Source: an uncultured bacterium
GTDB lineage: Bacteria > Patescibacteriota > Minisyncoccia > Phycocordibacterales > UBA9973
Reading direction: 5' to 3'
NCBI GenBank assembly: GCA_903894565.1
Contig: CAITQP010000009.1
Span: forward strand, 8,576 to 72,575
DNA: 64,000 nucleotides
The notes under the pieces were generated by a model. It saw only the letters and a program-made list of their open reading frames with translations. It did no database searches and was not told the DNA's origin. Position numbers and translations under genes: made by a program. Of this stretch, positions 6,319 to 27,796 are shown piece by piece. Numbering within the stretch: position 1 is the first letter of the stretch; each line of letters opens with the position of its first letter.

Positions 6319-6429
6319 CAAAAAAGCCACACACTACGGGAAGGACTCTCGGAGCGCGACGGCGCGAGAGGGAGGCGACATTTCTTCGGAAATGTACGCC
6401 GGTCCTTACTGTAGTGTGTGGCTTTTGTG
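6319..6429. repeat. structured GC-rich repeat element, family 2, copy A
   Basis: Core cggagcgcgacggcgcgag..gaggcga..tacgc.ggt is shared with 27678-27796. Flanked by a ~19-bp inverted repeat (caaaaaagccacacactac / gtagtgtgtggcttttgtg). Inner hairpin has a cttcgg loop. Confidence 0.6.
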
Positions 6430-6456
6430 TGCGCGCAGATGCGGGCAAGAACAGTC

Positions 6457-7731
6457 TTAGTACTCGTGCATCGAAATCTGAGCATCAACCTTTTTGATGA
6501 GGTCGAGAATCACAGAAACGACGATGAGAAGTGCCGTACCTCCAAGCGCAATCGAAGTGATACCAGTGACGGCACGAGCAACGAGTGGCAAGACGGCGAT
6601 GACACCGAGGAACAATGCTCCAACGAGCGTGATACGTGAGACCACACCTGAGAGATACTGTTCGGTCGAAAGACCTGGACGAATACCGGGGATGAAGGCA
6701 CCTCCCTTCTGGAGATTTTCCGCCATCTGCTGTGGATCAAACGTCACTGCTGTATAGAAGTAGGTGAAGACGAACACGAGCACGAAGTAGATGATGCCGT
6801 AGAGCCATGTCGTCTGCGAGAAATTCGCAAGCGCACGACCAATAGCAAGCAAGTGACTATTGTGAGCAAACGTCGTCATGAGATTTCCAATGAGCTGCGG
6901 CAAGAGCAAGATTGAGAGCGCGAAGATGATTGGGATCACTCCAGCTTGGTTCACACGAAGTGGAACGTACGTTGAAACTCCTCCAGTCGATCCTCCTCCA
7001 CGTACCTGACGTGCATACGTAACAGGGATTGGGCGCTCAGCTTCCGTGATCACAACAACACCAACGATGAGCGCGAGCCCAAGGATGATGAAGAGTGCGT
7101 AAAATGGAATCTGTGCGACACTGAATGTGAAGAGTGTCTGACTAATGTGTGTTGGAAGTGCGGCAATAATACCAGCGAAAATGATGACTGAAATACCGTT
7201 TGATACTCCAAATTCTGTCATCACTTCTCCAAGCCACATGAGGAAGAGTGATCCTGCAGTCACAACCACGAGACTCGTGATGAGCGCGACTGGCGCAAGA
7301 TGACTAAAGATTCCCTGCTTCTCAAGGAGCAACATGAGTCCGAGACCCTGCAAGAGCGCAAGCGGAATTGCAAGAATACGTGAGTATTGTGCAAACGTCT
7401 TACGTCCTGCCTCACCTTCGTCTTGGTTCAACGCCTTCAAGCGAGCACTCATCATCGTGAGCAACTGCATGATAATCGAAGCCGTAATGTATGGTCCAAC
7501 ACCAAGCATGATGATCGAAAGCGTCGTGAGTCCTCCTCCAGAGAAGAGGTTCAACACTCCGAAGAACTGGTTGTTCGCGAGAAATTGTGCGAGACGAGCT
7601 GGATCAACTCCAGGAACTGGAATTGTCGCAAGCAAGCGGAAGACCACGAGCAAACCAAGCATGACGAACATGCGGTTGCGCAAAGCCTTATCGCGCCAAA
7701 TGATCTTGAGCTTTGAAAAAAAAGTATTCAT
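6457..7731 (-). CDS. secY: preprotein translocase subunit SecY
   Basis: 424 aa, 10-TM profile, SecY signature regions, follows rplO. Confidence 0.95.
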   Translation of the reverse strand: MNTFFSKLKIIWRDKALRNRMFVMLGLLVVFRLLATIPVPGVDPARLAQFLANNQFFGVLNLFSGGGLTTLSIIMLGVGPYITASIIMQLLTMMSARLKALNQDEGEAGRKTFAQYSRILAIPLALLQGLGLMLLLEKQGIFSHLAPVALITSLVVVTAGSLFLMWLGEVMTEFGVSNGISVIIFAGIIAALPTHISQTLFTFSVAQIPFYALFIILGLALIVGVVVITEAERPIPVTYARQVRGGGSTGGVSTYVPLRVNQAGVIPIIFALSILLLPQLIGNLMTTFAHNSHLLAIGRALANFSQTTWLYGIIYFVLVFVFTYFYTAVTFDPQQMAENLQKGGAFIPGIRPGLSTEQYLSGVVSRITLVGALFLGVIAVLPLVARAVTGITSIALGGTALLIVVSVILDLIKKVDAQISMHEY

Positions 7732-7747
7732 AGTGGTTCGAAAGCGA

Positions 7748-8182
7748 TTACGCTTCTACTGTTCCTCCGACTTTTTCGATTGCTGCTTTTGCTGTCGCTG
7801 AAAGCGTACAGCCTTTGACTGAGAGTTTCTTTGAAAGTGTTCCACGAGCAAGAATCTTGACGCGTGGGTTGTTTCCTCCCTTCACGCGAACAACTTTCTT
7901 TGCCATGAGTGTCTCAAGTGACACTACCTCCCCTGCATTATACGCAGTGTTGAGTGCATCGAGGTTGATTGCGTAGAATGTGTTCTGGATTGAAGCGAAT
8001 TTGTATCCGCGGAGCTTTGGGATCTTTTTGATCGCATCTCGAAGTTCTGGGCGGCGCTTGTTACCAGCACGAGCAGTCTGTCCTTTGCCTCCACGTCCTG
8101 AAGTCTTACCATGGCGTCCGCCACGGCCAAGCTGAACATGAGACTTTTCTTTTATGTTTCGTTTTACTGTATGTGTTTGCAT
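7748..8182 (-). CDS. rplO: 50S ribosomal protein L15
   Basis: GRGGRHGKTSGRGGKGQ motif. Start trimmed to MQTHTVKRN to avoid overlap with rpsE. Confidence 0.9.
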   Translation of the reverse strand: MQTHTVKRNIKEKSHVQLGRGGRHGKTSGRGGKGQTARAGNKRRPELRDAIKKIPKLRGYKFASIQNTFYAINLDALNTAYNAGEVVSLETLMAKKVVRVKGGNNPRVKILARGTLSKKLSVKGCTLSATAKAAIEKVGGTVEA

Positions 8183-8198
8183 ATATTTCTCCTCGAGA

Positions 8199-8885
8199 TT
8201 ACTTCGCGACCACAGCGGATTCTTCAGCAAGCTTTACTGTTGCAGCAGCGGCTTCAGCACGGTCAGAAGCAATCTTGTGATGGATGACTTTTGTACCGAT
8301 AGCTTCAAACGCTTTCATTGTTGCGCGAGCATTGTTGAGCTTGTTCTTTGAACCTGAGAGGATCTTTGTCGTTACATCCTTAACTCCAGCAAGGAGAAGC
8401 ATGTCACGTGTTGCACTTCCTGAGATGAGTCCGCGTCCACGGTTCGGCATGAGCATAACTCGTGCTGAAGAGAACTTTGCAGAAATATCATGTGGGAGTG
8501 ACTGTGTCTTCGTGAGCTTCAACTTGAGCATGTTTTTCTTGGCAGCCTTTTGAGCCTTTTGGATTGCCATTGATGTATCAATAGCTTTTCCGGTTCCAAG
8601 TCCTACCATTCCCTTGCGGTCACCAATAGCGAGCGCAACACTAAACGTCATACGACGTCCACCTGAGACCACACGAGTCACGCGACGAATCGCGAGAATC
8701 TTCTGGTCATACTCAGGCTTCGCGCGCTCAGTAAATGGGCGACGTCCACCTGGACGTGAGCCACCTGGGCGAGCACCTGCACCTCCTGCACCACCGCGAG
8801 AACCGCCGTATGATGAACCTCCGCGAGAAGCTCCACCACGAGCGCTTGATCCAGCTGGTTTTGTTGTATTTGTAGTTTCAGCCAT
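8199..8885 (-). CDS. rpsE: 30S ribosomal protein S5 with Gly/Arg-rich N-terminal extension
   Basis: S5 dsRBD and C-terminal domain (..GRRMTFSVALAIGD.., ..NARATMKAFEAIG..). ~60-aa G/R/S-rich N-terminal tail. Confidence 0.9.
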   Translation of the reverse strand: MAETTNTTKPAGSSARGGASRGGSSYGGSRGGAGGAGARPGGSRPGGRRPFTERAKPEYDQKILAIRRVTRVVSGGRRMTFSVALAIGDRKGMVGLGTGKAIDTSMAIQKAQKAAKKNMLKLKLTKTQSLPHDISAKFSSARVMLMPNRGRGLISGSATRDMLLLAGVKDVTTKILSGSKNKLNNARATMKAFEAIGTKVIHHKIASDRAEAAAATVKLAEESAVVAK

Positions 8886-8890
8886 AGAAT

Positions 8891-9238
8891 TTAGAAGTTA
8901 AGGCCACTCGCACGTGCTGCGTCGGCAAGAATTTTAACACGACCTGCGTAGCGGAAACCGCCACGATCGAAGACGACTGTAGTAATTCCCTTTTCTTTCA
9001 AAAGGCCTGCAATAGTCTTTCCAACGAATTCAGCTCCTGCAACTTTGGTTCCCTTTTGTGCGGAATCACTTGCAGCAACGAGTGTGATCTGTTTGTTGTC
9101 GTCGATAGCCTGTGCGTAGATGAATTTGTTTGAGCGGAAGACAGCGAGACGTGGACGCTTTGCGTCACCAGCGATTCGCATACGGATCTTCTTCTTCAAA
9201 CGCATGCGCTTTTCAGTTTTGATGTTTTTTGTTTTCAT
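8891..9238 (-). CDS. rplR: 50S ribosomal protein L18
   Basis: 115 aa, FDRGGFRYAGRVKILADAARASGLNF C-terminal signature. Confidence 0.9.
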   Translation of the reverse strand: MKTKNIKTEKRMRLKKKIRMRIAGDAKRPRLAVFRSNKFIYAQAIDDNKQITLVAASDSAQKGTKVAGAEFVGKTIAGLLKEKGITTVVFDRGGFRYAGRVKILADAARASGLNF

Positions 9239-9258
9239 ACTATTTATCTATTTACTGA

Positions 9259-9795
9259 TTACGCAGCCTTCTTACCCTGCTTGCGACGGATAACCTCAGT
9301 ATCGTAACGGAATCCCTTACCCTTATATGGCTCAGGCTTTTTCATTGCGCGTACCTTGGCTGCAAATTGACCGACCATTTCTTTGTCTACACCAGTGATC
9401 GTGATGTTGTTCTTCTCAGCAGTAACCGTGAGGCCTGTTGGGATTGGGACAACGACACCGTGAGAGAATCCAAGTGCGAGGTTGAGGTCTGTACCTTTGA
9501 CTTCACTCTTAAATCCAACTCCTTCGAGAATGAGTTTCTTCGCGTATGGAGTGTTTACACCGGCAAGCATGTTTTTGACATGTGATGCGTATGTGCCCCA
9601 GAGTGCACGAGAAAAGATGTCTGAATCATTCTTTGGTTTGAGAGTGACATAGCCACCGTCAATGAGAATGATGACATCAGGTTTGACCTCGCGAGTGAGA
9701 GTGCCTTTCGGACCTGTAACTGTGAGGACACCAGCGTCGAGTTTGACCTCTGTACCGGCTGGAATTGGGATGGGTTGTTTAGCGATTCGTGACAT
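9259..9795 (-). CDS. rplF: 50S ribosomal protein L6
   Basis: 178 aa with the two-domain L6 pattern (MSRIAKQPIPIPAGTEV...). Confidence 0.9.
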   Translation of the reverse strand: MSRIAKQPIPIPAGTEVKLDAGVLTVTGPKGTLTREVKPDVIILIDGGYVTLKPKNDSDIFSRALWGTYASHVKNMLAGVNTPYAKKLILEGVGFKSEVKGTDLNLALGFSHGVVVPIPTGLTVTAEKNNITITGVDKEMVGQFAAKVRAMKKPEPYKGKGFRYDTEVIRRKQGKKAA

Positions 9796-9800
9796 ATAAT

Positions 9801-10187
9801 TTACCAGATAGAGAACAATACCTCGCCGCCGACGTGTTCCTTGCGAGCTTCTTTGTCAGTCAGAATGCCTTTCGGAGTTGAAAGGACGAGCAATCCCTTG
9901 CCATTCTTGATTGACCTAATATCCTGCGCGCCAGCGTACATACGACGTGACGGCTTCGAGATGCGAACAACTTCATTGATTTTTGGGATTCGGTCGACAG
10001 CAATGAGAGAAACCTCAAATACTGGTCGTCCGCGACGTGATTTCTTTGTAATAGCACCGACAAAGCCTTCTTTCGAAAGTTTTTGTGCGATTGCGAGACA
10101 GAGCTTCGATTCTGGAACGACAACGACGTCGCGGAGTGCGCGATTGGCGTTTTTCATTCCTGTGAGCATATTTGATACTGGATCCAT
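9801..10187 (-). CDS. rpsH: 30S ribosomal protein S8
   Basis: 128 aa with the S8 pattern (MDPVSNMLTGMKNA...LLVLSTPKGILTDKEAR..GGEVL). Confidence 0.9.
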   Translation of the reverse strand: MDPVSNMLTGMKNANRALRDVVVVPESKLCLAIAQKLSKEGFVGAITKKSRRGRPVFEVSLIAVDRIPKINEVVRISKPSRRMYAGAQDIRSIKNGKGLLVLSTPKGILTDKEARKEHVGGEVLFSIW

Positions 10188-10205
10188 AGATTTACTTTAG
10201 AGTGA

Positions 10206-10391
10206 TTACCAAGACGACTTACGGACGCCCGGGATCATGCCTTCATTGGCAAGTTCACGGAAACAGATTCGACAAAGTCCGAAATCACGCATAAAACCTC
10301 GACCTCGGCCACACTTAAAACAACGATTCTTCGCCCTTGTTGAGAACTTCGGCGTGCGCGTAGCGCGATATTTTGTTGATGTCTTTGCCAT
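10206..10391 (-). CDS. rpsZ: 30S ribosomal protein S14 type Z (zinc-binding)
   Basis: 61 aa MAKTSTKY...[23 protein letters not shown] with a CxxC..CxxC zinc ribbon. The upstream ATG at 10424 is rejected as a spurious extension. Confidence 0.85.
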
Positions 10392-10591
10392 AGTGAAAAT
10401 AGGAGGCCCGCCAGCGCGTATCACGTGTTTGTTCTTTATATCCCTAGAGCAGGAGAAACCTAGGAAACTAAAGGAGAAAAACGGACGCCACTGACTTAAT
10501 CTGCCTCGACGCTCATATTATCAGATTTTCGCTTCGTGTCAACTCACCTCACCCACCACGATCACTATCTTATGCAGATTACCACATTCTA

Positions 10592-10620
10592 TTGACATTA
10601 GCATCTATAGAGTGTATAAT
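10592..10620 (+). promoter_or_regulatory. consensus sigma70-like promoter (TTGACA-17-TATAAT)
   Basis: ttgaca at 10592-10597, 17-nt spacer, tataat at 10615-10620, about 24 nt upstream of the ATG at 10644. Confidence 0.5.
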
Positions 10621-10643
10621 GATAATACAACCAAAAATAAGTT

Positions 10644-10913
10644 ATGTTCTCAACTAAAAATTTGTTAAGCCCAGGAGCACTATTCGGGCATTTCGCAACA
10701 CTTGTGCAGATCGTACTGGTATTTACCGTGCCTACGATTCTGCCACTGCGCTTTTTGTTTTTTTCCCTGATTCCAATCGGAGTCAGCGAAATGATGTTCC
10801 TACTTGGAGCATTCGGACTTGCTAAGCAAAAGAGGGCGGCATTCGTGCTGTTCATATTAGCAGGAATGATGATCGTAGCAACAATGTTTCAATTATTTTT
10901 CTTGCGCAAGTAA
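10644..10913 (+). CDS. small hydrophobic membrane protein
   Basis: 89 aa with three hydrophobic segments, directly behind a consensus promoter. Confidence 0.4.
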   Translation: MFSTKNLLSPGALFGHFATLVQIVLVFTVPTILPLRFLFFSLIPIGVSEMMFLLGAFGLAKQKRAAFVLFILAGMMIVATMFQLFFLRK

Positions 10914-10969
10914 CAGCCCCTCAACCTTATTCTTAAGCAGGCACTATCAATTAGTGTCTGTTTTTGCAT

Positions 10970-11806
10970 CTACTCCTCGATGTGAGTTCTCACGAGTGAG
11001 TACAAACAAGCCTCAATACCAAAAGCCTGCCCAATATCGTGCGCAAATTGTCGAACATAAAATCCGCTCGAAACAGTAAGCTCAACTTTGACCGTGAGTA
11101 ACTCATCAGGTAGGTCTCGGGCACACTGTGTCCACGTCTCAAGAATTTCGGCTTGACGAAAATCACCCTGAACAATACTCGTGAGTTTTTGGACTCGATC
11201 AAGTACTTCAGCTCGAGTGCGTGAGCCGACCGTGAGGTCGGTGTATGAAATGAGCTCCACATCATGTTTCGGCAAAAGAACCTCATTCCCCGCCCGCGCA
11301 TGCGTATGAAGCTGAATACCATCTACCGTCTTTGAAGAATATGCTGGATACTGTTGTTGGAATTTACCGATCATTTTTTTAAGAAATGCTTCAACGTGCG
11401 CAGAAATTTCCAAACATTCTTTTGAAAAGGCAACTCGTCGCGCGTGCTCGCGCGCGAGCTTCTCGGCGCCAAGCGCCTGCGAAAGGCCTTCTTCAAAAGA
11501 ATGTTTGGAAATTTCTGCGCAGGTAGAAGGAATACCCAACAAATCATATGTATCAGTTGATACACTAAAAATAATTTCGGCTACATACGTTTTAGAGAGT
11601 CCGCTGTAAGCGTCTTTGTTTTTACATTCCTCACCCACGAGGATAATCAGTTCACCTTCCGCGGCTGGGTCAAGTCGCCCCGCATACGTCATCGGAACAC
11701 TCGCATCAATCCCTTCGCTCGCGCGGAGTCGCTCCAAACAAACAAGCGGGGTTTCTCCCCACTCTTTGTATACGCGATATACGTTTTTTATACCTTCGCT
11801 TGCCAC
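10970..11806 (-). CDS. truB: tRNA pseudouridine(55) synthase TruB carrying an in-frame 41-aa insertion encoded by a palindromic repeat element
   Basis: MTYAGRLDPAAEGELIILVGE...KTYVAEI.FSVSTDTYDLLG and MIGKFQQQYPAYSSKTVDGIQLH match the TruB GxLDP and GxIxQxPPxYSAxK motifs. The frame is continuous through the 123-bp repeat at 11398-11520. Confidence 0.7.
   Translation of the reverse strand: MASEGIKNVYRVYKEWGETPLVCLERLRASEGIDASVPMTYAGRLDPAAEGELIILVGEECKNKDAYSGLSKTYVAEIIFSVSTDTYDLLGIPSTCAEISKHSFEEGLSQALGAEKLAREHARRVAFSKECLEISAHVEAFLKKMIGKFQQQYPAYSSKTVDGIQLHTHARAGNEVLLPKHDVELISYTDLTVGSRTRAEVLDRVQKLTSIVQGDFRQAEILETWTQCARDLPDELLTVKVELTVSSGFYVRQFAHDIGQAFGIEACLYSLVRTHIEE
11398..11520. repeat. structured repeat element, family 1, copy 1 (inside the truB coding sequence, in frame)
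   Basis: 80-bp core ttttgaaaaggcaactcgtcgcgcgtgctcgcgcgcgagcttctcggcgccaagcgcctgcgaaaggccttcttcaaaag is flanked by a perfect 22-bp inverted repeat gcgcagaaatttccaaacattc / gaatgtttggaaatttctgcgc. Length 123 = 41 codons. Confidence 0.7.
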
Positions 11807-12366
11807 GCCGTGTACGCCTCCAGAATCATTTGCTCAACTGTCGGAATATCATTCACTTTTGTATCAATCACCAAATCAAAATGGCTCGGGTCCTGGTAAT
11901 TTTCAATGGCGTAATATTTGTTGTAACGTTCTTTCTCACTCGCAAGTCGCTCAGAAAGTCGTGTCTTCACGTCGATGAGTGTCTCTGACATTTCCTCCTT
12001 GCGTTCAGATTTCTTGGCTTGAATATCGCCGAACACACGAGCACCCGCCGTATCCAAATCAAGATTCAAAAATACTTTGAATGAATCAGGTGCGAAAAAC
12101 CATCCAATACGTGAATCAATCACAAAATTGTTATTGCTATCCATGAAGGCTTTTTGCTTGGCATCGATTTCACGATCAACCGCTGGGTCATTTTCTGCAA
12201 GGAGGTTGAGTTCAACGATAGTCAGCCCACGCTCACTCGCCATCGCACGCATGAAGTCCCCAGCCGAGTAGTGCGGATAGCCGAGCGCTGTGGCCACACG
12301 CTTGGCAGCGGTTGATTTGCCTGAACCGAGCATGCCACAGATGGTGATGATGTTGCGCTTTTGCAT
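11788..12366 (-). CDS. cmk: cytidylate kinase-like nucleoside monophosphate kinase (P-loop)
   Basis: ITICGMLGSGKST Walker A and overall CMP-kinase-like layout. Start chosen at MQKRNIITICG. Confidence 0.5.
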   Translation of the reverse strand: MQKRNIITICGMLGSGKSTAAKRVATALGYPHYSAGDFMRAMASERGLTIVELNLLAENDPAVDREIDAKQKAFMDSNNNFVIDSRIGWFFAPDSFKVFLNLDLDTAGARVFGDIQAKKSERKEEMSETLIDVKTRLSERLASEKERYNKYYAIENYQDPSHFDLVIDTKVNDIPTVEQMILEAYTAWQAKV

Positions 12367-12446
12367 AGGCGAAGAATAGCACGACTCGAGCAAAATAAAA
12401 AATAACCACCCAATCCTGAGTAGTTATTTTCTATTATTATTTATAT

Positions 12447-13013
12447 TTAATCTACGGAGAGACTGTTCTCAGTAGCAAATAGCTGTAGTTGGAAAAGGCC
12501 AACTTCCTCAATACCAAACCTGACAAAGATATCGAGCAGCAGTAGTAACTGTTGGCAATATTTTCGTTCTTTAGGGTCCTTTTTGGTCTCTTTCTCAGCC
12601 ACAATCTTTGAACGAATGATCTCACCCTCCTCGACAATCCATTTTTTAAAGTTATCTTCAATTTTTTTCACATACCAATCAACCAACTGTTGATTGGGCT
12701 TAAGTGACCTTTTCAGCATCACTATTTTATGGGGATAAAATCCCCCGAGGTCCATCTCCCTTTTTATCGTCAAGAATAGAACGAAGACAAACTCGTCTAT
12801 TGACCTTTTTTGCAGTAGGGTCAATTTCTTTTTGCAAAAAAGGTACTCCGCGAATATCTCGCGGTTTATTGATGTTAGCCAGGTAATCCTTTTGTGTAAA
12901 CCTGGAAGACCAATCCCTAGGTCCTGCTTCTCAAACAGATACCTTTGAAAAAAATACCGAGCCAAAAAAAATACGGCGGGTAGAACTAAGAAAATCAATG
13001 CTAGTTTGCTCAT
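12447..13013 (-). CDS. hypothetical membrane-anchored protein (AT-rich)
   Basis: ORF track entry. Start chosen at MSKLALIFLVLPAVFF, an N-terminal TM segment. Composition clearly lower GC than the ribosomal neighbours. Confidence 0.45.
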   Translation of the reverse strand: MSKLALIFLVLPAVFFLARYFFQRYLFEKQDLGIGLPGLHKRITWLTSINREIFAEYLFCKKKLTLLQKRSIDEFVFVLFLTIKREMDLGGFYPHKIVMLKRSLKPNQQLVDWYVKKIEDNFKKWIVEEGEIIRSKIVAEKETKKDPKERKYCQQLLLLLDIFVRFGIEEVGLFQLQLFATENSLSVD

Positions 13014-13121
13014 GTGAACAATTGTTTTGTTGTGTGAAATTTTATTTACACTACAACATATCCACATATATAACAAGAGCCACACGTGAGTGTGGCTCTT
13101 GTTATATACTATGAAAATTGA

Positions 13122-13682
13122 TTATTTCTTCTTCTTTACATCCTCTTCCTTTTTGAAAGGAACACCGATGAGTTCGAAGAATGCGAGACCTTCTGCCTTT
13201 GTCTTTGCACTCGAGACGATTGTGACAGAGAGACCGAAGACATCCTTGATATCTTCATCTGCAGTTTCAGGGAAGATTGTGTGTTCCTTGATACCGAGTG
13301 TGAGGTTACCGATCGAGTCAACAGCTGAAGGATTGAATCCACGGAAGTCCTTCGTGCGAGGGACTGCAATGTTGAAAAACTTTTCAAGAAATCCGTACAT
13401 GCGAGGACCGCGGAGTGTTACAGAAACACCGACTGGGTCGCCCTGACGAATCTTGAATGTTGCGATTGATTGCTTTGCACCACGGAGTGCAGTCTTCTGT
13501 CCGGTGATCTTGGTCAAACGGTCAGCAACGAGATCGTTGTGATTCTTGTTACGCTTCATTGCGTTTCCAGTTCCGGAACCAACAACAACCTTCTGGAGCT
13601 TTGGAGCTCCCATGACGTTCTTGTAGCCAAACTTTGGCTTCAAAACTTCGTATGATTTTTGTGCTTTTTCTTTTACAGTCAT
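13122..13682 (-). CDS. rplE: 50S ribosomal protein L5
   Basis: MTVKEKAQKSYEVLKPKF start and L5 signature regions. Trimmed from ORF 13122..13745. Confidence 0.9.
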   Translation of the reverse strand: MTVKEKAQKSYEVLKPKFGYKNVMGAPKLQKVVVGSGTGNAMKRNKNHNDLVADRLTKITGQKTALRGAKQSIATFKIRQGDPVGVSVTLRGPRMYGFLEKFFNIAVPRTKDFRGFNPSAVDSIGNLTLGIKEHTIFPETADEDIKDVFGLSVTIVSSAKTKAEGLAFFELIGVPFKKEEDVKKKK

Positions 13683-13683
13683 A

Positions 13684-13989
13684 TTATACTTCCTGTCCGC
13701 TCTTCTTAGCGATGCGGATCTTCTTTCCATTAACATCCTGAGCACCCAAACGAGTTGGCTTGCCGGACTTTGGATCGAGGATCGCGACGTTTGAGCGATT
13801 TACTGGGTGAGCAATGTCCACCATCTGTCCCTTACCACCACGGGTAGTACTCTTCTGGTGACGCTTCTTCATGTTGAGACCCTCGACGAGAACTTTGTTC
13901 TCCTTTGGGAATACTGCGAGGATTTTGCCTTTTTTACCAGCATCCTTGCCTTTTGTGACTATTACGTTGTCTCCTTTTTTGATATTCAT
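13684..13989 (-). CDS. rplX: 50S ribosomal protein L24
   Basis: MNIKKGDNVIVTKGKDAGKKGKI KOW motif. Confidence 0.9.
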   Translation of the reverse strand: MNIKKGDNVIVTKGKDAGKKGKILAVFPKENKVLVEGLNMKKRHQKSTTRGGKGQMVDIAHPVNRSNVAILDPKSGKPTRLGAQDVNGKKIRIAKKSGQEV

Positions 13990-14012
13990 ATAATTGAAAG
14001 GTAGATTAATCG

Positions 14013-14390: not shown

Positions 14391-14413
14391 ATAATGTGTG
14401 TTACCTAAAACTA

Positions 14414-14674: not shown

Positions 14675-14682
14675 AAAAATAC

Positions 14683-15102: not shown

Positions 15103-15122
15103 AAATGTATCGTTAAATTAGA

Positions 15123-15815: not shown

Positions 15816-15818
15816 ATA

Positions 15819-18455: not shown

Positions 18456-18485
18456 CAAAAACGCGCCCGTAAGGGCGCGTTTTTG
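18456..18485 (-). terminator. rho-independent terminator immediately downstream of rplB
   Basis: aaaaacgcgcccgtaagggcgcgttttt, with a T-run on the minus strand after the hairpin. Confidence 0.6.
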
Positions 18486-18498
18486 TGTGTCATTTGAA

Positions 18499-19341: not shown

Positions 19342-19383
19342 ACGCTAAAAAGATTTCGTATATCTCGAGGGTTTCCCTTCGGA

Positions 19384-19722: not shown

Positions 19723-19725
19723 AGA

Positions 19726-20403
19726 TTACTTCTTTGATACTGTGCAGCGCTTTTCAAGCGTAGCAACACTTGCGTCAGCATCGACGAAGATGACGTACTG
19801 GTGGTTGAGAACATCAAACGTGTTGAGGTCCTTTGCGAGTGAAAGTGAAACCTGTGGGATGTTGCGGAAACTCTGTGAGAAAACTTTGTCGACAGCTGGG
19901 ATCACAACCATTGCCTTTGGAGTGCGAGCTTTTGCAAGCTTCTCAAATCCATTGATTTTGGCGAATGCCTGAACGATAGCTGCTGCGTCTTGTGTCTTTG
20001 GAGCTTTTCCAAAACCAAGTGTCTCAGTGAAGAGCACCTGACCATCTTTCATCTTTGCAGAGAGAGCGGTTGCAAGAGCTTTGCTTGCCATCTTCTTGTT
20101 GACCTTCTGTTTGTAATTCTTCTCAGCAAGAGGTCCATGAGTAACACCTCCACCTTTCCAGATTGGAGAGCGGGATGATCCGTGACGAGCACGTCCTGTT
20201 CCCTTTTGCTTCCATGGCTTCTTTCCTCCTCCACGAACTTCTGCACGTCCTTTTGTATCTGCTGTTCCAGCACGAGTGTTTGCGCGAATTGCACGAAGTA
20301 CTTGGTGAACGAGGTCGCCATTCCATGAGACTCCGAACACATTCTCTGGAAGATTGATCTCTCCTTTCTTTTCGCCTTTTGCGTTGTATGTAGGATTTTT
20401 CAT
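19726..20403 (-). CDS. rplD: 50S ribosomal protein L4
   Basis: 225 aa with the L4 family pattern. Confidence 0.9.
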   Translation of the reverse strand: MKNPTYNAKGEKKGEINLPENVFGVSWNGDLVHQVLRAIRANTRAGTADTKGRAEVRGGGKKPWKQKGTGRARHGSSRSPIWKGGGVTHGPLAEKNYKQKVNKKMASKALATALSAKMKDGQVLFTETLGFGKAPKTQDAAAIVQAFAKINGFEKLAKARTPKAMVVIPAVDKVFSQSFRNIPQVSLSLAKDLNTFDVLNHQYVIFVDADASVATLEKRCTVSKK

Positions 20404-20407
20404 ATGA

Positions 20408-21025
20408 TTACTTCATTACGATTTCGAGCATAGTACCTCGTCGACCTGGAACGGCACCACTGATGAGGAGAGTATTTGTCTCAGCATCAACAGCAAGTAC
20501 TTTCAAATTGGAAACGGTGATGCGCTCGCCACCCATGCGTCCTCCCATGCGCATTCCTTTTGGAACGCGATTACGGAGACCTCCACCGATGGATCCTGGT
20601 GCACGCTCAGAGTGTTTCTGACCGTGTGAACGAGGTCCTCCTTTGAAGTTATGACGCTTGATGACACCCTGGAAACCTTTCGCTTTTGAGATACCACTGA
20701 CAGTGACAACGTCACCTGCAGCAAATACTTCACTCGTAAATTTGTCTCCACTGTTCATCTTTCCAGCCTCATCTGCAGAAACGCGAAACTCGCGTGTCGA
20801 CATAAAAAGACCATTGTCACCGAAATGACCTTTGAGAGCCTTGGTAACATTCTTTTCTTTGCGGACTCCGTAGCCAACTTGGACTGCAGTGTATCCGTCT
20901 TTCTCCATGTTCTTGATCTGCGTAACGACGACTGGCTCAATAGCCACGATCGTTGCAGCGTGCATTTTGCCATCTTCGGCAAAATACTCGGTCATATTCT
21001 TTTTTGTTCCTAATATGAATTTCAT
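20408..21025 (-). CDS. rplC: 50S ribosomal protein L3
   Basis: 205 aa with the L3 family pattern. Confidence 0.9.
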   Translation of the reverse strand: MKFILGTKKNMTEYFAEDGKMHAATIVAIEPVVVTQIKNMEKDGYTAVQVGYGVRKEKNVTKALKGHFGDNGLFMSTREFRVSADEAGKMNSGDKFTSEVFAAGDVVTVSGISKAKGFQGVIKRHNFKGGPRSHGQKHSERAPGSIGGGLRNRVPKGMRMGGRMGGERITVSNLKVLAVDAETNTLLISGAVPGRRGTMLEIVMK

Positions 21026-21184
21026 TTTTTTCTTTTCAGCGGAACAGCTTATTACTACTGTTCATGAATTAATAATCTCCTACACATCCACAACGTGGAT
21101 GGTTTTCTACACCCCCTTGCGGGGTTGGTTTCTACACCCCCATAGGGGGTAAGAAAATTTGGTTTGAGTACAAACCTAAATTTT

Positions 21185-21538
21185 CTACATCATCTTAACA
21201 TCCACCTCGACGCCACTTGGGAGTGAGAGACTGGTGAGTGCTTCGATTGTTTTCGCACCTGGATTGAGGATATCAATCACGCGCTTGTGCACGCGAATTT
21301 CAAACTGTTCACGGGTGTTCTTGTAAATAAATGGTGAACGGTTGACCGTGTACTTTTTGATTTCCGTTGGAAGCGGTGTTGGTCCTGCGATGACTGCATC
21401 ATGACGAAGTGCTGTATCCATGATCTGCTTGACCGAGTTGTCGAGAACTTTGTTCTCGTACGCTCGAACGCGGATGCGGAGACGAACTTCACCACTTTTT
21501 GCAGCCTCAGCTGTTTTTTTTGTTTTTGTTGTAGCCAT
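21185..21538 (-). CDS. rpsJ: 30S ribosomal protein S10
   Basis: 117 aa with S10 core (IRVRAYENKVLDNSVKQI...). Confidence 0.9.
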   Translation of the reverse strand: MATTKTKKTAEAAKSGEVRLRIRVRAYENKVLDNSVKQIMDTALRHDAVIAGPTPLPTEIKKYTVNRSPFIYKNTREQFEIRVHKRVIDILNPGAKTIEALTSLSLPSGVEVDVKMM

Positions 21539-21557
21539 AATGATGAGGTTTTAGTTT

Positions 21558-21602
21558 CTCGGTTCTCGGTTCGAGCGAATGCTCGAACCGAGCCCCGAGA
21601 AC
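21558..21602 (-). promoter_or_regulatory. strong stem-loop in the tuf-rpsJ intergenic region (candidate attenuator or processing site)
   Basis: Perfect 12-bp stem ctcggttcgagc-gaat-gctcgaaccgag, with additional flanking complementarity ggttctcgg / ccgagaacc. Confidence 0.4.
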
Positions 21603-21615
21603 CTAAGAACGAGTT

Positions 21616-22815
21616 CTACGCGATGATACTGGTTACGACTCCGGCACCGACAGTCTTGCCTCCTTCGCGGATAGCGAAGCGCATTCCCTGTTCCATGGCG
21701 ACTGGAGTAACGAGCTTAACCTTGAGGGTTACTGTGTCTCCTGGCATAACCATTTCCTTTCCTTCTGGAAGCATGACATCTCCTGTCACGTCAGTTGTAC
21801 GAACGTAGAACTGAGGCTTGTATCCCTTAAAGAATGGAGTGTGACGTCCACCTTCTTCCTTCTTCAAAATGTAAACTTCACATTCGAATTCAGAGTGAGG
21901 CTTAACGGTACCCATCTTTGCGAGAACCTGTCCACGAGTAATGTCTTCTTTTTTAAGACCGCGAAGAAGGATTCCAGCGTTGTCGCCGGCGATACCTTCT
22001 TTGAGGTTCTTGTTGAACATTTCGATACCAGTGACTGTTGTCTTCTGTGTATCTTTGATTCCAACGATTTCAACTTCTTCACCAACCTTCACAACTCCAC
22101 GCTCGATACGGCCTGTAACAACAGTTCCGCGTCCTTCGATTGAGAAGATGTCTTCAACCGGCATAAGGAATGGCTTTGTGATGTCGCGTTCTGGAAGTGG
22201 GAAGTAAGTGTCGAGAGCGTTTGCGAGCTCAAGAACTTTCTGTGCCCATGGATCATTGTTGTCTGCAGACTCGAGAGCCTTGAGACCTGAACCACGGATG
22301 ACAGGACATCCTGCGCCGTCGAAGCCCTGCTTGGTGAGGAGTTCGCGGACTTCTTCTTCAACGAGCTCGATGAGATCTGGATCATCAACCATGTCGCACT
22401 TGTTGAGGAACACGATGATCTTTGGCACTCCAACCTGTTTTGCAAGGAGGATGTGTTCACGAGTCTGTGGCATAACACCGTCAGTCGCAGCAACAACGAT
22501 GATTGCTCCGTCCATTTGAGCGGCACCGGTAATCATGTTCTTGATGTAGTCGGCGTGTCCTGGAGCATCAATGTGAGCGTAGTGGCGAGTAGGAGTCTCG
22601 TACTCGTTGTGAGAGAGGGCGATCGTGATTCCACGAGCCTTTTCTTCAGGAGCCTTGTCGATATCTCCAACACCCTTAAGCTTTGCACTGTAACCATTTC
22701 CCTGACGAGCAAGAACCGTAAGGATCGCTGCTGTAAGAGTAGTTTTGCCGTGGTCAACGTGACCGATGGTTCCTACGTTGACATGGGGCTTGGAACGGTT
22801 GAATTCTTCTGCCAT
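21616..22815 (-). CDS. tuf: elongation factor Tu
   Basis: 399 aa, [22 protein letters not shown] motifs. Confidence 0.97.
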
Positions 22816-23138
22816 ATGTTTTTTGAGCTACTTATTAAAGTGAGCTTATAAAATTAAGAACTAATAATGCGCGAGCCTGCGCAAGGTTGGTTACTGGCGA
22901 GAGCAGGGGCACCAAGCTTGTCTTTGAACTATTCGTAAAAATAGCCTTGAAATGAAAGACAAAACTGCCTCTGCCACAGCCACTAACCGTTTGAAAGTCC
23001 GCACCCAGGCACGAAAAAATAGCCTGGGGAGAGCTATCGAGGTTGATATTAGCAGATTTAGGGGGTATGTCAACTGATTTTGGGTAAAAATTGACGATTT
23101 CAACGAATATAGTGTAGTATGCAACAAAATCATACAAA

Positions 23139-23537
23139 ATGAATCGAAGATTATTGTTTGCGCTCATCGGCATCGTTGCCCTTCAGTGCATGCTTGCCTG
23201 TAATAGCAAGCCCAAAAAAGATTATTCTGCTCTCCTTTCGAGGATTGAGCTGATATGTAGGGCAGATACGTCTCTCCCGCCAACTTATAGCGACGGAGAC
23301 AGCATTTTTCGCCACTATCAGGGTGGAGCGAAGACAGTTTTCTCGCTGAACCGAAATGGTGATAAAAAAACTGTAAGTACTGAGTACCCCTTGGATGATA
23401 CCGACACGGTAGAGATTACCCTTACAATGGATAATGTCTCAGGGAGCATCATGTGCTTCGACAAAGAACACGAGTTCAAATATTATCAATTATTCTCTTC
23501 GGAAGAAGCAATAGATAAACTTGAACGAATTAAGTAA
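23139..23537 (+). CDS. putative lipoprotein
   Basis: Signal peptide with lipobox-like ..QCMLAC^N, 132 aa. Confidence 0.45.
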   Translation: MNRRLLFALIGIVALQCMLACNSKPKKDYSALLSRIELICRADTSLPPTYSDGDSIFRHYQGGAKTVFSLNRNGDKKTVSTEYPLDDTDTVEITLTMDNVSGSIMCFDKEHEFKYYQLFSSEEAIDKLERIK

Positions 23538-23539
23538 CG

Positions 23540-23576
23540 CCTGTAGGCAAGAAAAAATCTGCCCACAGGTTTTTTC
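23540..23576 (+). terminator. rho-independent terminator after the lipoprotein gene
   Basis: cctgtaggcaag..ctgcccacagg hairpin followed by ttttttc. Confidence 0.5.
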
Positions 23577-23592
23577 TTGCCTATTTCATTTT

Positions 23593-23883
23593 TTAAACGA
23601 GCTGAACGCGTTTGCCGAGTGCGTGGGCGATGCGATTGAGTGTATCGAGTGAGATGCTGTGCTGACCGCTCTCGATACGGGCGATGACCGATTGTGGCAT
23701 CTTGGCCTTCTTCGCGACAGCGAGCTGAGTCATCCCCTTTTCTTTACGAACGCGTTTGATTTCCATGACGAGATTCAAGCGCATAGCTTCCTCGTTATAG
23801 GATTTGATAAAGGCCTTTGATTTTGAAGCTTTTTTGAAAACTTCGTCCACCGTATAAAATTCCAGTCCGTTGATTATTTCCAT
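23593..23883 (-). CDS. higA: HigA-like antitoxin, XRE-family HTH
   Basis: HTH segment GMTQLAVAKKAKMPQSVIARIESGQHSISLDTLNRIAHALG. Overlaps the upstream toxin gene by 10 nt. Confidence 0.65.
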   Translation of the reverse strand: MEIINGLEFYTVDEVFKKASKSKAFIKSYNEEAMRLNLVMEIKRVRKEKGMTQLAVAKKAKMPQSVIARIESGQHSISLDTLNRIAHALGKRVQLV

Positions 23884-24179
23884 ATATTTTTTAGATAATG
23901 ATATATTCGCAATGCATTTTCGATTTCTTGAGGCGGTGTTTTGGCTGTCTTTTTTATAAACACAGAAACAAAATATATCTCGTTTGATTCTATAAAAAAT
24001 AATATCCGGTAATGAAGCACAATCAGTTCACGAATCGGAAAGCGGAGCATTTTAGTGTGAACTGATTGAAAATGACCATACAATAGCGCATCGAGCGCAA
24101 GTCGAACTTTGCCTTGTTCTTTGTTTGAAAGATTATTTATAAATTCAGAAACATTTCTTAATACTTTGCTCTGGTACAT
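23874..24179 (-). CDS. higB: HigB/Gp49-like RelE/ParE superfamily toxin
   Basis: 101 aa. IRELIVLHYRILFFIESNEIYFVSVFIKKTAKTPPQEIENA matches the Gp49/HigB C-terminal pattern. Toxin-first gene order with an XRE antitoxin downstream. Confidence 0.6.
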   Translation of the reverse strand: MYQSKVLRNVSEFINNLSNKEQGKVRLALDALLYGHFQSVHTKMLRFPIRELIVLHYRILFFIESNEIYFVSVFIKKTAKTPPQEIENALRIYHYLKNIWK

Positions 24180-24341
24180 AATGAATATATCAATATTGCT
24201 ATAGTGCTGTCAATGAGCTTTATTAAGATTTACGATACCAAATCCGATATCAATTCTATGCAAAGAAATTGTCGAGGAATAGCAAAAGGCGCGCCCTCCG
24301 GGCGCGCCTTTTGCTTCTTTCATTTGTTTGTCGTCCGAACC

Positions 24342-26507
24342 TTAAGCAGTTGCTGAGCGAGCCTTTACGATTTCGTCAGCTACGTTCTTAGGGACGATAT
24401 CGTAGCGGAGGAATTCCATTGTGAATCCTGCGCGACCTTCTGTCATCGAGCGGAGGTTCGTCATGTAACCGAACATTTCCGAGAGTGGCACCACAGCTTT
24501 GACGGCTTGGTTGAGTCCACGCTGTTCCATACCTTCGATGATTCCACGCTTCGCGGAGAGTGATCCAGTGACATCTCCCATGAATTTGTCTGGAGTGACC
24601 ACTTCAACACTCATCATCGGCTCAAGGATAACAGGGCTTGCGCGTCGTGCGGCTTCTTGAACGGCCATTGAGGCTGCGATCTTGAAGGCCATTTCGTTTG
24701 AGTCCACATCGTGGTACGAACCATCCCAGAGTTCAACAGAAATATCTTCCATTTTGAATCCAGCAACAACTCCACGATCGAGACCTTCTTTGAATCCTTT
24801 TTCACAGGCTGGAATGTATTCCAAAGGAATAGCTCCTCCCTTGATTGTGTTGATGAATTCGAAGTGTTCTTCGCGCTTGGTGTTGCGTGGGAGATCTTCG
24901 ATTTCTTCCTTGGTCATTTTGACCATAGGCTTCATCTTGATCTTTACGTGACCGTAGTTTCCACGACCTCCCGTCTGCTTGATATACTTACCTTCAGCTT
25001 CTGATTCAGTCGATATCGTTTCGCGGTAAGCAACTTGTGGTTTACCAACATTCACTTCAACAGTGAACTCACGCTTGAGACGGTCAACAATGATTTCAAG
25101 GTGGAGTTCTCCCATTCCGGCGATGATTGTCTCACCTGTTTCCTGATCTGTCGAAACGCGGAATGTTGGATCTTCTTGACCGAGACGGTTAAGCGCCATA
25201 CCCATTTTTTCTTGGTCAGCCTTTGTCTTTGGCTCAATACGCATAGAGATAACTGGCTCCGGGAAGACGATACGATCGAGTGCGATTGGGTGCTCCGGCT
25301 CACAAAGAGTGTCTGAAGTGATCGCTTCTTTGAGTCCAACGGCCGCTGCGATTTCTCCAGCGAATACTTTCTTCACTTCTTCACGCTCGTTTGCGTGCAT
25401 ACGAACGATACGTCCAACACGTTCTTTGTTGCGAGTACGTGGGTTGTAAACGTATGAACCAGCAGAGAGAGTTCCTGAATACACGCGGAAGAAGATGAGC
25501 TGTCCAACGAATGGGTCAGATGCAACTTTGAACGCAAGTGCTGAGAGTGGCTCGTTGTCATTTGCTGTAATCACGACGTCCTCTTCTGTGTCAGGGTTGA
25601 TTGCATGCATTGGTGGCATGTCAGATGGTGATGGGAGGTAGTCAACGACTGAGTCGAGGACGAGTTGAACACCCTTGTTCTTGAGCGCAGTTCCCGCAAG
25701 CACTGGGAAGATTGCATTCGCGATAACCGCTTTGCGGAGCACGACTTTGAGTTCAGCAAGTGATGGCTCTTTGCCGTCGAGGTATGAGGTCATCATCGCA
25801 TCGTCGTTCGCAACGATTGCTTCGATGAGTTCTGCGCGATATTTTGCAACATCGGCCTTCATGTCTTCTGGGATGTTGTCTGAAACGACAACTTTCTCAC
25901 CCTTGTCGCCTTCGAAACGGACGGCTTTGTTTGCAAGAAGATCAATAACACCTTCGAATTTTTCTTCGAGACCGATTGGGAGGTGGAGACGAACTGCCTT
26001 CTTACTGAGACGATCAAGAATAGATGCGAATGATTTCTCAAAGTTTGCACCTGTTCGGTCGAGCTTGTTGATGAAACAGATACGAGGAACATTGGCCTCG
26101 TCGGCGTAACGCCAGTTGGTCTCAGACTGTGGCTCAACTCCGGCAACACCGTCGAAGACGACGACTGCACCGTCGAGCACGCGGAGAGAACGCTTCACTT
26201 CCACAGTGAAGTCGATGTGCCCAGGAGTGTCGATGAGGTTGAAGCGGAACTTCTTGCTCAAGTCTTTGACGTCGGGGACGTAGGTCGGTGTCCAGAAACA
26301 TGTTGTAGCAGCAGCGGTAATCGTGATTCCACGCTCACGCTCCTGTTCCATCCAGTCCATCACAGCTTCACCTTCGTGCACTTCTCCGATCTTGTGGGAG
26401 ACACCCGTATAAAAGAGCACACGCTCTGATGTCGTGGTCTTACCGGCATCGATGTGGGCAATGATACCGAAGTTTCGAACCTTATTGAGAGGATAATCGC
26501 GTTCCAT
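24342..26507 (-). CDS. fusA: elongation factor G
   Basis: 721 aa with AHIDAGKTTT and DTPGHIDF motifs. Confidence 0.97.
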   Translation of the reverse strand: MERDYPLNKVRNFGIIAHIDAGKTTTSERVLFYTGVSHKIGEVHEGEAVMDWMEQERERGITITAAATTCFWTPTYVPDVKDLSKKFRFNLIDTPGHIDFTVEVKRSLRVLDGAVVVFDGVAGVEPQSETNWRYADEANVPRICFINKLDRTGANFEKSFASILDRLSKKAVRLHLPIGLEEKFEGVIDLLANKAVRFEGDKGEKVVVSDNIPEDMKADVAKYRAELIEAIVANDDAMMTSYLDGKEPSLAELKVVLRKAVIANAIFPVLAGTALKNKGVQLVLDSVVDYLPSPSDMPPMHAINPDTEEDVVITANDNEPLSALAFKVASDPFVGQLIFFRVYSGTLSAGSYVYNPRTRNKERVGRIVRMHANEREEVKKVFAGEIAAAVGLKEAITSDTLCEPEHPIALDRIVFPEPVISMRIEPKTKADQEKMGMALNRLGQEDPTFRVSTDQETGETIIAGMGELHLEIIVDRLKREFTVEVNVGKPQVAYRETISTESEAEGKYIKQTGGRGNYGHVKIKMKPMVKMTKEEIEDLPRNTKREEHFEFINTIKGGAIPLEYIPACEKGFKEGLDRGVVAGFKMEDISVELWDGSYHDVDSNEMAFKIAASMAVQEAARRASPVILEPMMSVEVVTPDKFMGDVTGSLSAKRGIIEGMEQRGLNQAVKAVVPLSEMFGYMTNLRSMTEGRAGFTMEFLRYDIVPKNVADEIVKARSATA

Positions 26508-26607
26508 GGAATTACTTATATATAATCAATTCTAATAAAAAAAGAGACACCGAGTCCCATTTGTTCGGAAACTATACAGAAAAAGCGCTTTTTTTGCAAA
26601 TAAAAAA

Positions 26608-26636
26608 TCCCCATAAAGGGGATTTTTTAAAAATGA
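26608..26636 (-). terminator. terminator-like hairpin between rpsG and fusA (possible attenuator)
   Basis: aaaaaatccccataaaggggatttttt, plus a second small palindrome aaaaagcgcttttt at 26580-26595. Confidence 0.35.
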
Positions 26637-26644
26637 GGTGATAT

Positions 26645-27115
26645 TTACCAAGCAAGGTGAGCAAAAGCTTTGTTTGATTCTGCCATCTTCTTTGTATCGT
26701 CTCGCTTTTTGATTGCGGCACCTTCGTTGTTGAAAGCTTGCATGAGTTCGTTCGCGAGCTTCTCGGCCATTGGTTTGCCTTTGCCGCCACGTGCAGCATC
26801 GATAATCCAGCGGTATGCGAGTGCTTGTTTGCGCTCTGGGCGAACTTCGCGTGGAACCTGATAGTTTGCTCCACCAACACGGCGTGAGCGAACTTCAATT
26901 GCTGGTCCAACGTTCTTGATCGCTGCATCGAAGATTTCGAGTGGATTTTCGTTTCCAGTCTTTACCTTGATGATTTCGAGGGCGTCATAGACACACTTGC
27001 GTGATTTGTCTTTCTTTCCATCCTGCATCACGTAGTTGATGAATTTTTCAAGACGCTCTGAGCCGAACTTGATGTCTGCTCCTGGGATATTTCGTTTTTT
27101 AACTGGTCTTCGCAT
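26645..27115 (-). CDS. rpsG: 30S ribosomal protein S7
   Basis: 156 aa with the S7 family pattern. Confidence 0.95.
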   Translation of the reverse strand: MRRPVKKRNIPGADIKFGSERLEKFINYVMQDGKKDKSRKCVYDALEIIKVKTGNENPLEIFDAAIKNVGPAIEVRSRRVGGANYQVPREVRPERKQALAYRWIIDAARGGKGKPMAEKLANELMQAFNNEGAAIKKRDDTKKMAESNKAFAHLAW

Positions 27116-27135
27116 AGTAAGTAGAGATTAGAGGA

Positions 27136-27561
27136 TTATTTCTTGACGGCAGCCTTAGGCTTTTTGTTACCGTAGAGAGAGCGCGACTGGCGACGCTTCT
27201 CAACACCTGCTGCATCGAGACGTCCGCGAACGATGTGGTAACGAACTCCGATAAGGTCCTTCACGCGTCCACCACGGAGCATGACGACTGAGTGTTCTTG
27301 GAGGTTGTGTCCTTCACCTGGGATGTAGGCAGTAACTTCCATTCCGTTTGAGAGACGAACGCGGGCGATCTTTCGGAGCGCTGAGTTTGGCTTCTTTGGA
27401 GTAGTCGTTGTGACCTTTGTACATACACCACGCTTGAACGGCGCCGAATAGTAGATTGGGCGGTTCTTAAGCGCGTTAAAACCACGCGAAAGCGCAGTAG
27501 TTCGAGACTTTTGGACGACCTGTTTGCGTCCCTTTTTTGAGAGTTGATTTATTGTAGGCAT
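27136..27561 (-). CDS. rpsL: 30S ribosomal protein S12
   Basis: [13 protein letters not shown] start. Trimmed from ORF 27136..27690, whose extension runs into the repeat element. Confidence 0.95.
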
Positions 27562-27677
27562 GTAGTGATTAAAATAAAAAGCTAGGCTACACCCAGAAGC
27601 AACTCGAACAATATCTAGGGGGAACTCGCTTAGGTCAGTACTATACATAGACTCTCGAGAAAATGCAAGAGGGAGGC

Positions 27678-27796
27678 GGGAAAACCACAAAATGCCCTTG
27701 TGAAAGTATCCGCGGAGCGCGACGGCGCGAGCGTGAGGCGAAAATCCTTCAGGATTTTACGCTGGTACTTTCACAAGGGCATTTTGTGGTTTTCCC
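27678..27796. repeat. structured GC-rich repeat element, family 2, copy B, in the rpsL leader
   Basis: Perfect 31-bp inverted repeat gggaaaaccacaaaatgcccttgtgaaagta / tactttcacaagggcattttgtggttttccc. It flanks the conserved core cggagcgcgacggcgcgagcgtgaggcga and the hairpin gcgaaaatcc-ttca-ggattttacgc. Confidence 0.65.

Follow-up and report, generated by a model that had tools for sequence, protein, structure and literature searches.

Among the kinds of repeat closest to the element described here are transposable elements of the miniature inverted-repeat type (MITEs) with stable hairpin transcripts, such as Correia/NEMIS, ERIC, RUP and BOX, and especially the pneumococcal SPRITE, which resembles a rho-independent terminator (reviewed in PMC10969869). 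The element, which we call family 2, occurs twice in a 64,000-nucleotide (nt) stretch of contig CAITQP010000009.1 from an uncultured bacterium of the Patescibacteriota (the whole stretch, which is of metagenomic origin, is referred to below as the window). Like MITEs and SPRITE it is small, non-coding, present in multiple copies and intergenic in transcribed 3' regions, with a presence that varies between relatives, and it has short conserved inverted termini and a long hairpin of terminator-like layout. It differs in four respects: neither a target-site duplication nor a parent insertion sequence was found, conservation peaks centrally at a three-way junction and not at the ends, the long outer arms are locus-specific, and the unit sits at the symmetry centre of another hairpin.

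Repetitive extragenic palindromic (REP) sequences, their BIME and REPIN assemblies and the REP-associated tyrosine transposases (RAYTs) form a second point of reference (PMC2817692, PMC3333891). These too are extragenic palindromes at gene 3' ends, with a hairpin that is likely recognised in single-stranded form, and insertion sequences of the IS1397 type target REP hairpins (PMC1525189), making hairpins preferred landing sites, as they would be for family 2. However, family 2 lacks the GTAG/CGTC head, is a 55-nt three-way junction and not a simple palindrome of 20-40 nt, and flanks no RAYT. The palindromic elements of Rickettsia are likewise repeats of ~100-150 nt in a reduced genome with several coexisting families, some of them inserted in frame in housekeeping genes (here truB) with the reading frame intact. 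They belong to another phylum, and no sequence similarity was found or expected; moreover, most family-2 copies are intergenic at terminator positions and have a conserved branched core with covarying stems. Family 2 differs from MITEs, REP/REPIN sequences and the Rickettsia elements in its central conservation, its local arms and its place at a hairpin apex.

Three further systems resemble it in shape or process. The T-shaped inverted terminal repeat (ITR) of adeno-associated virus (AAV) exists in flip and flop forms; it is a viral replication origin, and there was no evidence for hairpin-primed replication in family 2. Integron attC sites are structure-defined recombination sites of ~60-140 nt that fold from a single strand beside gene 3' ends, but attC conserves the base of the stem (R and L boxes) and varies centrally, whereas family 2 does the reverse, and no intI gene or integrase-linked cassette array was found in the window or the fetched loci. 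Template switching can homogenise and extend the arms of inverted repeats and introduce compensatory changes in one event (PMC8794818, PMC13100816, PMC7202029); its products share with the elements studied here near-perfect arms, substitutions and indels on both arms and a central segment inverted between arms, the last being seen in two sister families (1 and 3) of the window. Template switching is a mutational process, and neither it nor the AAV ITR is a repeat family.

We read family 2 as an interspersed, non-coding palindromic DNA repeat of Paceibacteria-like bacteria, ultra-small groundwater members of the candidate phyla radiation (CPR), that spreads as DNA and occupies the apex of terminator hairpins, a reading to which we assign a probability of about 0.62. 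What is observed is a short unit whose Y-shaped core is conserved and which caps locus-specific hairpins in terminator positions. In the window, copies A and B and their parts are:

6304..6444, + strand: copy A, the whole palindromic hairpin (inverted repeat I5 and fold), adjoined by the 3' ends of a 639-amino-acid (aa) gene and secY
6347..6401, + strand: core of copy A, forming a three-way junction (columns 25-79 of alignment A2; pair counts)
6304..6346, + strand: copy A 5' arm, A-rich (GCACAAAAAAGCC...)
6402..6444, + strand: copy A 3' arm, containing a T tract (GGCTTTTGTGTGC)
27655..27819, + strand: copy B, the whole palindromic hairpin (inverted repeat I3), from the stop codon of a 724-aa gene to the region upstream of rpsL
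27710..27764, + strand: copy B core, with the architecture of copy A (alignment and pair counts)
27655..27709, + strand: copy B 5' arm (inverted-repeat call)
27765..27819, + strand: copy B 3' arm, in whose outer 21 nt the 724-aa gene ends (last codons and stop codon, read on the - strand)

Both copies fold into a long stem with a three-way junction carrying two small hairpins, at -80.7 kcal/mol for copy A (z = -11.8) and -93 kcal/mol for copy B (z = -14.7), and none of 200 shuffles folded as well. The arms measure 43 nt at 86% complementarity in copy A and 60 nt at 88% in copy B. The P2 helix of copy A pairs 6348-6350 with 6368-6370, hairpin 1 is GCGC-GACG-GCGC (6354-6365) and hairpin 2 is GGCGACATTTC-TTCG-GAAATGT(A)CGCC (6374-6400); hairpin 2 of copy B is GGCGAAAATCC-TTCA-GGATTTT(A)CGCT, including one G-T pair. 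The window has exactly two occurrences of the 18-mer GGAGCGCGACGGCGCGAG (6351 and 27714, + strand in each case), against an expected count of 0.02 (two copies were reached in 0 of 100 shuffles), and GAGGCGA and TACGC.GGT lie downstream of it in copies A and B alike. Covariance model R1 matches copy A at 6323-6427 with 109.6 bits and copy B at 27686-27790 with 110.6 bits. An earlier note on this DNA had reported the two copies, a common core that includes GAGGCGA, and TACGC.GGT downstream of it; positions, quoted sequences and core are all as it gave them, except that the palindromes extend further, to the full 6304-6444 and 27655-27819. It had also placed copy B between two genes, and the genes are the right ones, although the outer arm overlaps the last codons of the upstream gene. 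On one side copy B meets the stop codon at 27799-27801 that closes the 724-aa gene; on the other, rpsL starts at 27561, 94 nt beyond the end of the copy.

Scanning one genome per species with the core pattern returned 14 exact-pattern loci, ten of them in a single ~0.8-Mb metagenome-assembled genome (MAG), ELA106, and the rest in MAGs whose labels read Paceibacterota or Saccharibacteria. Each locus matches without gaps over 105 nt and has the common architecture, and the ELA106 loci include the orthologue of copy B (L012/L063). A metagenome scan, using a pattern for hairpin 2 only and the covariance model, added copies from Hainich groundwater, peat and other samples, and more divergent copies came from relatives fetched via SecY and GyrA homologues, the SecY relatives being named Pacebacteria, Nomurabacteria or Minisyncoccia. 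Searches of related genomes and metagenomes, of the kind proposed in the earlier note, did find further copies, bringing family 2 to 33, of which 31 lie beyond the window. The unit is ~75-100 nt long, with no element-specific open reading frame (ORF). Phage and plasmid collections gave no blastn match for family 2, and the seven GGAGCGCGACGGCGCGAG matches in viral contigs are chance matches, since none fits the covariance model. At gathering thresholds Rfam gave no match anywhere in the window. Permissive thresholds, applied to copies A and B and a family-1 copy, gave only Clostridiales-1 at 16.8 bits (threshold 48) and plant and animal microRNA precursors, which match any long hairpin, so that the Rfam check put forward in the earlier note yielded generic long-hairpin matches below threshold and no family. 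Literature searches on palindromic repeats or structured RNAs of CPR bacteria turned up nothing specific. Family 2 is a real, lineage-restricted repeat family.

Some individual copies stand out. One, immediately upstream of a tyrosine recombinase gene (L036, 913-1049), contains a 32-nt extra hairpin within its hairpin 1, and two others lie ~250 nt apart (L030, 1999-2357). Independent assemblies stop in or near the hairpins: contig L002 ends at 5099, and contig L064 starts 59 nt before rpsL. The elements probably fragment CPR metagenome assemblies, and because assemblies break in or beside the hairpins they are probably under-counted.

The 55-nt core is a three-way junction on the strand carrying GGAGCG..., with a G-A-C-G loop on hairpin 1 and a bulged A in hairpin 2. 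Across 16 copies 96.1% of cells were paired and 27 of the 42 pairs had changed on both sides; none of 500 shuffles was as good, and slid registers were merely 35-51% paired. The 33-copy alignment, which was fitted to the model and is thus biased towards structure, gave 97.1% of cells paired and both-side changes in 40 of 42 pairs. The covariation that the earlier note saw between two copies thus holds with more of them. G-U pairs made up ~1.4% of cells in the 33 copies, as against 445 both-side changes. Hairpin 1 occurs as GCGC, AGCC, GGCC, CCGC, AGCCGC and AGGCGC, each with its matching partner. Every helix covaries, and the unpaired GGA, GA, G.GA, bulged A, GG and G-A-C-G loop are kept in at least 26 of 33 copies, a conservation figure partly forced by the search patterns that found the copies. 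The conserved junction nucleotides are presumably read by something. Pooled over the copies, the outer arms comprise 562 Watson-Crick pairs and 24 mismatches (10 G-T, 4 A-C and 10 other), with no clear RNA bias.

Within one genome the cores are identical or nearly so. They are flanked by conserved inverted termini of 8-22 nt, which read GAAGTAAC...GTTACTTC for Hainich and TTTTGAAAGYAC...GTRCTTTCAAAA for ELA106. Between Hainich copies the arms are at background identity beyond ~8 nt (GAAGTAAC), and between ELA106 copies beyond ~13 nt, where an A tract occupies positions 18-22; within any one copy the two arms pair nearly perfectly over 25-45 bp. Because the arms are unrelated between copies beyond the termini, the long arms are not inherited with the core, and would be either pre-existing hairpins or locally made. 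At the gyrA site ELA106 and L071 share a hairpin that is ~96% identical while the flanking DNA is 87% identical, and the two versions are distinguished by one G-C to A-T change and one 1-nt indel, each present in both arms. On these values the idea that the arms hypermutate continuously was rejected, and since the gyrA-site arms are better conserved than their flanks, arm differences at other sites reflect replacement events. The arm changes are of the kind that replication template switching between arms would produce.

Comparison of orthologous sites among relatives gave the following contents:

3' of secY: canonical family 2 in the window; a divergent core in ELA106 and GROS21 (79 and 75 bits)
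3' of secY: in L068 and L069, plain terminators whose stems begin similarly (ACAAAAAAACACC, ACAAAAAAAGCCCGC)
3' of gyrA: one common family-2 hairpin in ELA106 and L071
3' of gyrA: in L073, L074 and L075, plain hairpins that bear no relation to one another; in L072, an unrelated insert
3' of map: L068 with a family-2-like copy; the window and ELA106 with a third core family
sod/comEC: family 2 in L016; family 1 in the window
rpsL site: family 2 in the window and ELA106, with arms 61% alike, less than to some paralogous copies

There is thus episodic gain, loss or replacement at orthologous sites. At the secY site the divergent core of ELA106 and GROS21 lies directly inside the GCATAAAAAAAGGC stem, and the start of the secY terminator stem of relatives is similar to the outer part of the copy A 5' arm; at the gyrA site the stem start of L075 resembles the outer arm of ELA106. 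Exact-protein look-up of rpsL-site orthologues found just ELA106 and one contig that breaks at the hairpin.

A gene 3' end abuts the element in 24 of 27 scorable contexts, and relative to the upstream gene the tandem contexts comprise nine antisense and five sense copies. The composite hairpins sit immediately behind stop codons, at positions that in relatives hold ordinary bidirectional hairpins of terminator type. The abutting genes are unrelated housekeeping genes (secF, lepA, TerC-like, NUDIX, gatB, DHODH, arginase, pyrG and gyrA). At least six T in eight positions were found in the 3' arm of 19 of 32 copies, compared with 20% of background windows. In the clade of the window the family-2 hairpins keep the order A tract, GC-closed stem, T tract whichever strand is read; the ordinary terminator-like hairpins of the window are perfect, 16-23 bp long and A/T-flanked.

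At least three structured hairpin repeat families fill about one in ten intergenic regions of a ~1-Mb genome, and family 1 has three window copies with a family-2-like architecture, a different GC-rich Y-shaped core and variable long arms. The elements of families 1 and 3 are:

11375..11543, + strand: family-1 element in frame inside truB (10970-11806, - strand)
32437..32579, + strand: family-1 element between sod and comEC, its arms overlapping both stop codons
51030..51164, - strand: family-1 element between ppa and tig
1528..1686, strand not assigned: family-3 element, whose long hairpin bears a third kind of core that is branched and larger; the equivalent site of L068 holds a family-2-like copy
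L065 15159-15285, 18543-18643 and 19688-19780, and L066 17903-17999 and 18392-18495: further family-3 copies

The truB element interrupts the TruB_N match; compared with solved TruB structures it contributes ~35 extra residues, placed between conserved TruB segments. At the same site ELA106 and GROS21 carry the family-1 core inverted relative to the window, with similar arms, L068 has an in-frame family-2-like core (64 bits) inside an intact 268-aa truB, and L069 has a 17-bp hairpin only. The family-1 arms show a compensated dinucleotide change between the window and GROS21, and the third copy (51030-51164) has compensatory changes in hairpin 1. The family-3 core is also inverted between the window and ELA106, with colinear flanks. 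A common origin of families 1 and 2 was rejected: R1 scores 39.6 bits on family 1, no better than reverse-strand matches on true copies, so that the match merely reflects a long stem.

The unit would spread from hairpin to hairpin as DNA and be replaced episodically, either by the action of a structure-specific enzyme recognising the conserved junction when a single strand is folded, or by replication template switching from one terminator arm to a similar one. The composite hairpin would still terminate transcription in either orientation, as the compact core is proposed to leave the stem undisturbed. Template switching between the arms could keep them perfect, change both sides at once and lengthen them, and it or inter-arm recombination could also invert the core. 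A more specific version, which we hold tentatively and think less probable than the general one, takes the core for a new type of structure-specific selfish module that 'homes' into the apices of terminator hairpins and is copied, whichever way round, by inter-hairpin template switching or by an enzyme of its own that recognises the conserved junction on folded single-stranded DNA. Several core families unrelated to one another, three or more of them in the window, would then compete for hairpin sites, including the tolerated site in truB.

Several observations weigh against the reading of family 2 as a mobile DNA repeat of terminator hairpins. No direct repeats indicative of target-site duplication flank the 16 copies, the flanks merely continuing the palindrome, and the loci fetched held no transposase or autonomous parent element for it. 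An orientation flip was not observed for family 2 itself. Termination is suggested by layout: T tracts are missing from many Hainich copies, and a consensus terminator scan, which accepts loops of 3-8 nt, calls none of these hairpins because their 'loop' is 55 nt. The A tract of ELA106 lies at a constant distance from the core, and part of the 'terminator' may therefore travel with the unit instead of being a pre-existing target. Besides the pattern-driven share of the conservation figures, the GGAGCG strand folds better in 29 of 29 copies, by a mean of 6.8 kcal/mol, and carries 82 G-U pairs as against 32 on the other strand; these strand differences, taken with the conserved junction, would suit a functional RNA as well.

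On that alternative the core is an RNA module in the 3' untranslated region or terminator of many mRNAs, with stem covariation selected at the RNA level; it might be bound by an RNase or RNA-binding protein specific to CPR bacteria, stabilise 3' ends, or be a small ribozyme that has escaped recognition. Besides the strand asymmetry, the strong covariation in all four helices, the conserved bulged A and loops, the conserved purine-rich GGA/GA junction with its possible tandem sheared G-A pairs, the cUUCGg tetraloop of copy A and the location in transcribed 3' regions are what such a module would show. Yet orientation to the upstream gene is mixed, the helices are almost devoid of G-U pairs, the sister families flip between close relatives, a family-2-like copy lies in frame within truB, equivalent sites in relatives have no element, and no Rfam family matches at E <= 10, all ribozyme classes included. 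We consider an RNA module rather unlikely. The earlier note had taken the conserved core with its compensatory stem changes as the signature of a functional RNA, a step that the few G-U pairs, the mixed orientation, the unrelated genes, the relatives with plain terminators and the missing Rfam match do not support; its alternatives of a terminator class or a foldback mobile element fit the data. Another candidate is a cis-acting site on folded single-stranded DNA, which could be a substrate for an HUH/Y1 (RAYT-like) enzyme or a tyrosine recombinase, or else a signal for lagging-strand priming or recombination. The enzyme would recognise the Y-shaped tip, as with REP/RAYT, IS200/IS605 ends, integron attC and the T-shaped AAV ITR. 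Strictly Watson-Crick helices with very few G-T pairs, unpaired nucleotides conserved on one strand, the missing target-site duplications (as in HUH single-strand transposition), a RAYT-like Y1 transposase in the clade, the L036 copy abutting a tyrosine recombinase gene and four located copies on contig 2 of ELA106, all on one strand, are consistent with this. Nevertheless, the repeat that flanks the RAYT found is a different, unrelated one that does not occur in the window, and no such enzyme gene lies beside the window copies. This explanation, which we judge quite unlikely as a separate one, overlaps the preferred reading and departs from it solely in the mechanism of spread.

An immobile, vertically inherited intrinsic terminator with a branched tip, its copies alike through convergent selection or gene conversion, would account for the position after stop codons, the A and T tracts, the plain terminators at equivalent sites in relatives and a gyrA-site element better conserved than its flanks. 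It does not sit well with cores of 55-80 nt that are identical at 10 or more unlinked loci with unrelated arms, with different core families at one site in relatives, with copies inside coding sequence or with the many copies that have no T tract, and we think it highly improbable. Less credible still is a ribosomal-protein leader or autoregulatory element of the str operon. Copy B does lie upstream of rpsL, as it does in ELA106, and the earlier note had placed it in the leader of the str operon. However, copy B abuts the stop codon of the upstream gene, the arms of the orthologous rpsL-site copies in the window and ELA106 differ, and there is no match to an Rfam leader family. Above all, other copies follow secF, lepA, gatB, pyrG, gyrA, arginase and further genes, a distribution by which the leader reading is effectively refuted; a regulator of ribosomal proteins was rejected as a candidate because copies follow so many unrelated genes. 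Given these unrelated neighbours, the mixed orientation and the scarcity of G-U pairs, the place of copy B before rpsL is incidental. An rpsL promoter that had been read by eye in the outer arm was dropped as well, the promoter scan around both copies having called none.

A Y1 transposase gene of the IS200/RAYT-like type was seen in L073 (292-1589), where a 222-aa product (399-1067) has the HUH motif and a RYVERNPLRAGLV motif. Around the gene lie four inverted copies of AGGTACCTGACCCC, which gives this CPR genome an arrangement of REP/RAYT type. Neither the window nor any of the other 75 loci contains this repeat, and the transposase was rejected as a partner of family 2, the flanking repeat being unrelated to it.

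The genes next to the two window copies are:

6457..7731, - strand: secY (Pfam SecY), its 3' end towards copy A
4297..6216, + strand: the 639-aa ORF, without a Pfam match, its 3' end towards copy A, in the secY-adk spacer
27136..27561, - strand: rpsL, starting 94 nt beyond copy B
27799..29973, - strand: the 724-aa gene (CarboxypepD_reg), its 3' end abutting and overlapping copy B

The 724-aa gene, called a 'Cys-repeat protein' in the earlier note, contains at least five tandem 60-nt (20-codon) repeats that are 61-70% alike (29050-29463). The secY-adk spacer is a variable island (window 3800-6450; L065 11276-13082; L066 11216-12583; L069 11282-11344). It holds the 639-aa ORF in the window and small ORFs and RelB/YafQ toxin-antitoxin genes in relatives, and in L069 adk follows secY directly. 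At 10970-12393 cmk and truB lie within the spc ribosomal-protein operon, between rplE and rpsN, an arrangement kept in all relatives fetched. Elsewhere in the window, three paralogous genes of 565-581 aa on the - strand (55631-62721) contain diverged repeat blocks at 1750-nt spacing and look like a locally duplicated gene family.

CPR genomes are usually described as streamlined and repeat-poor. For their annotation, elements of this kind matter because they may be taken for non-coding RNAs, extend their arms over stop codons, insert in frame (truB) and leave assemblies broken. For RNA discovery they hold a caution: perfect compensatory change almost without G-U intermediates is the pattern expected from DNA-level template switching, so that covariation alone is no proof of RNA function. 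If homing into hairpin apices proves true, it would represent an undescribed niche and mechanism for mobile DNA and also yield a compact structured module tolerant of insertion into terminators, and the terminator hairpins of CPR bacteria would have parasites of their own.

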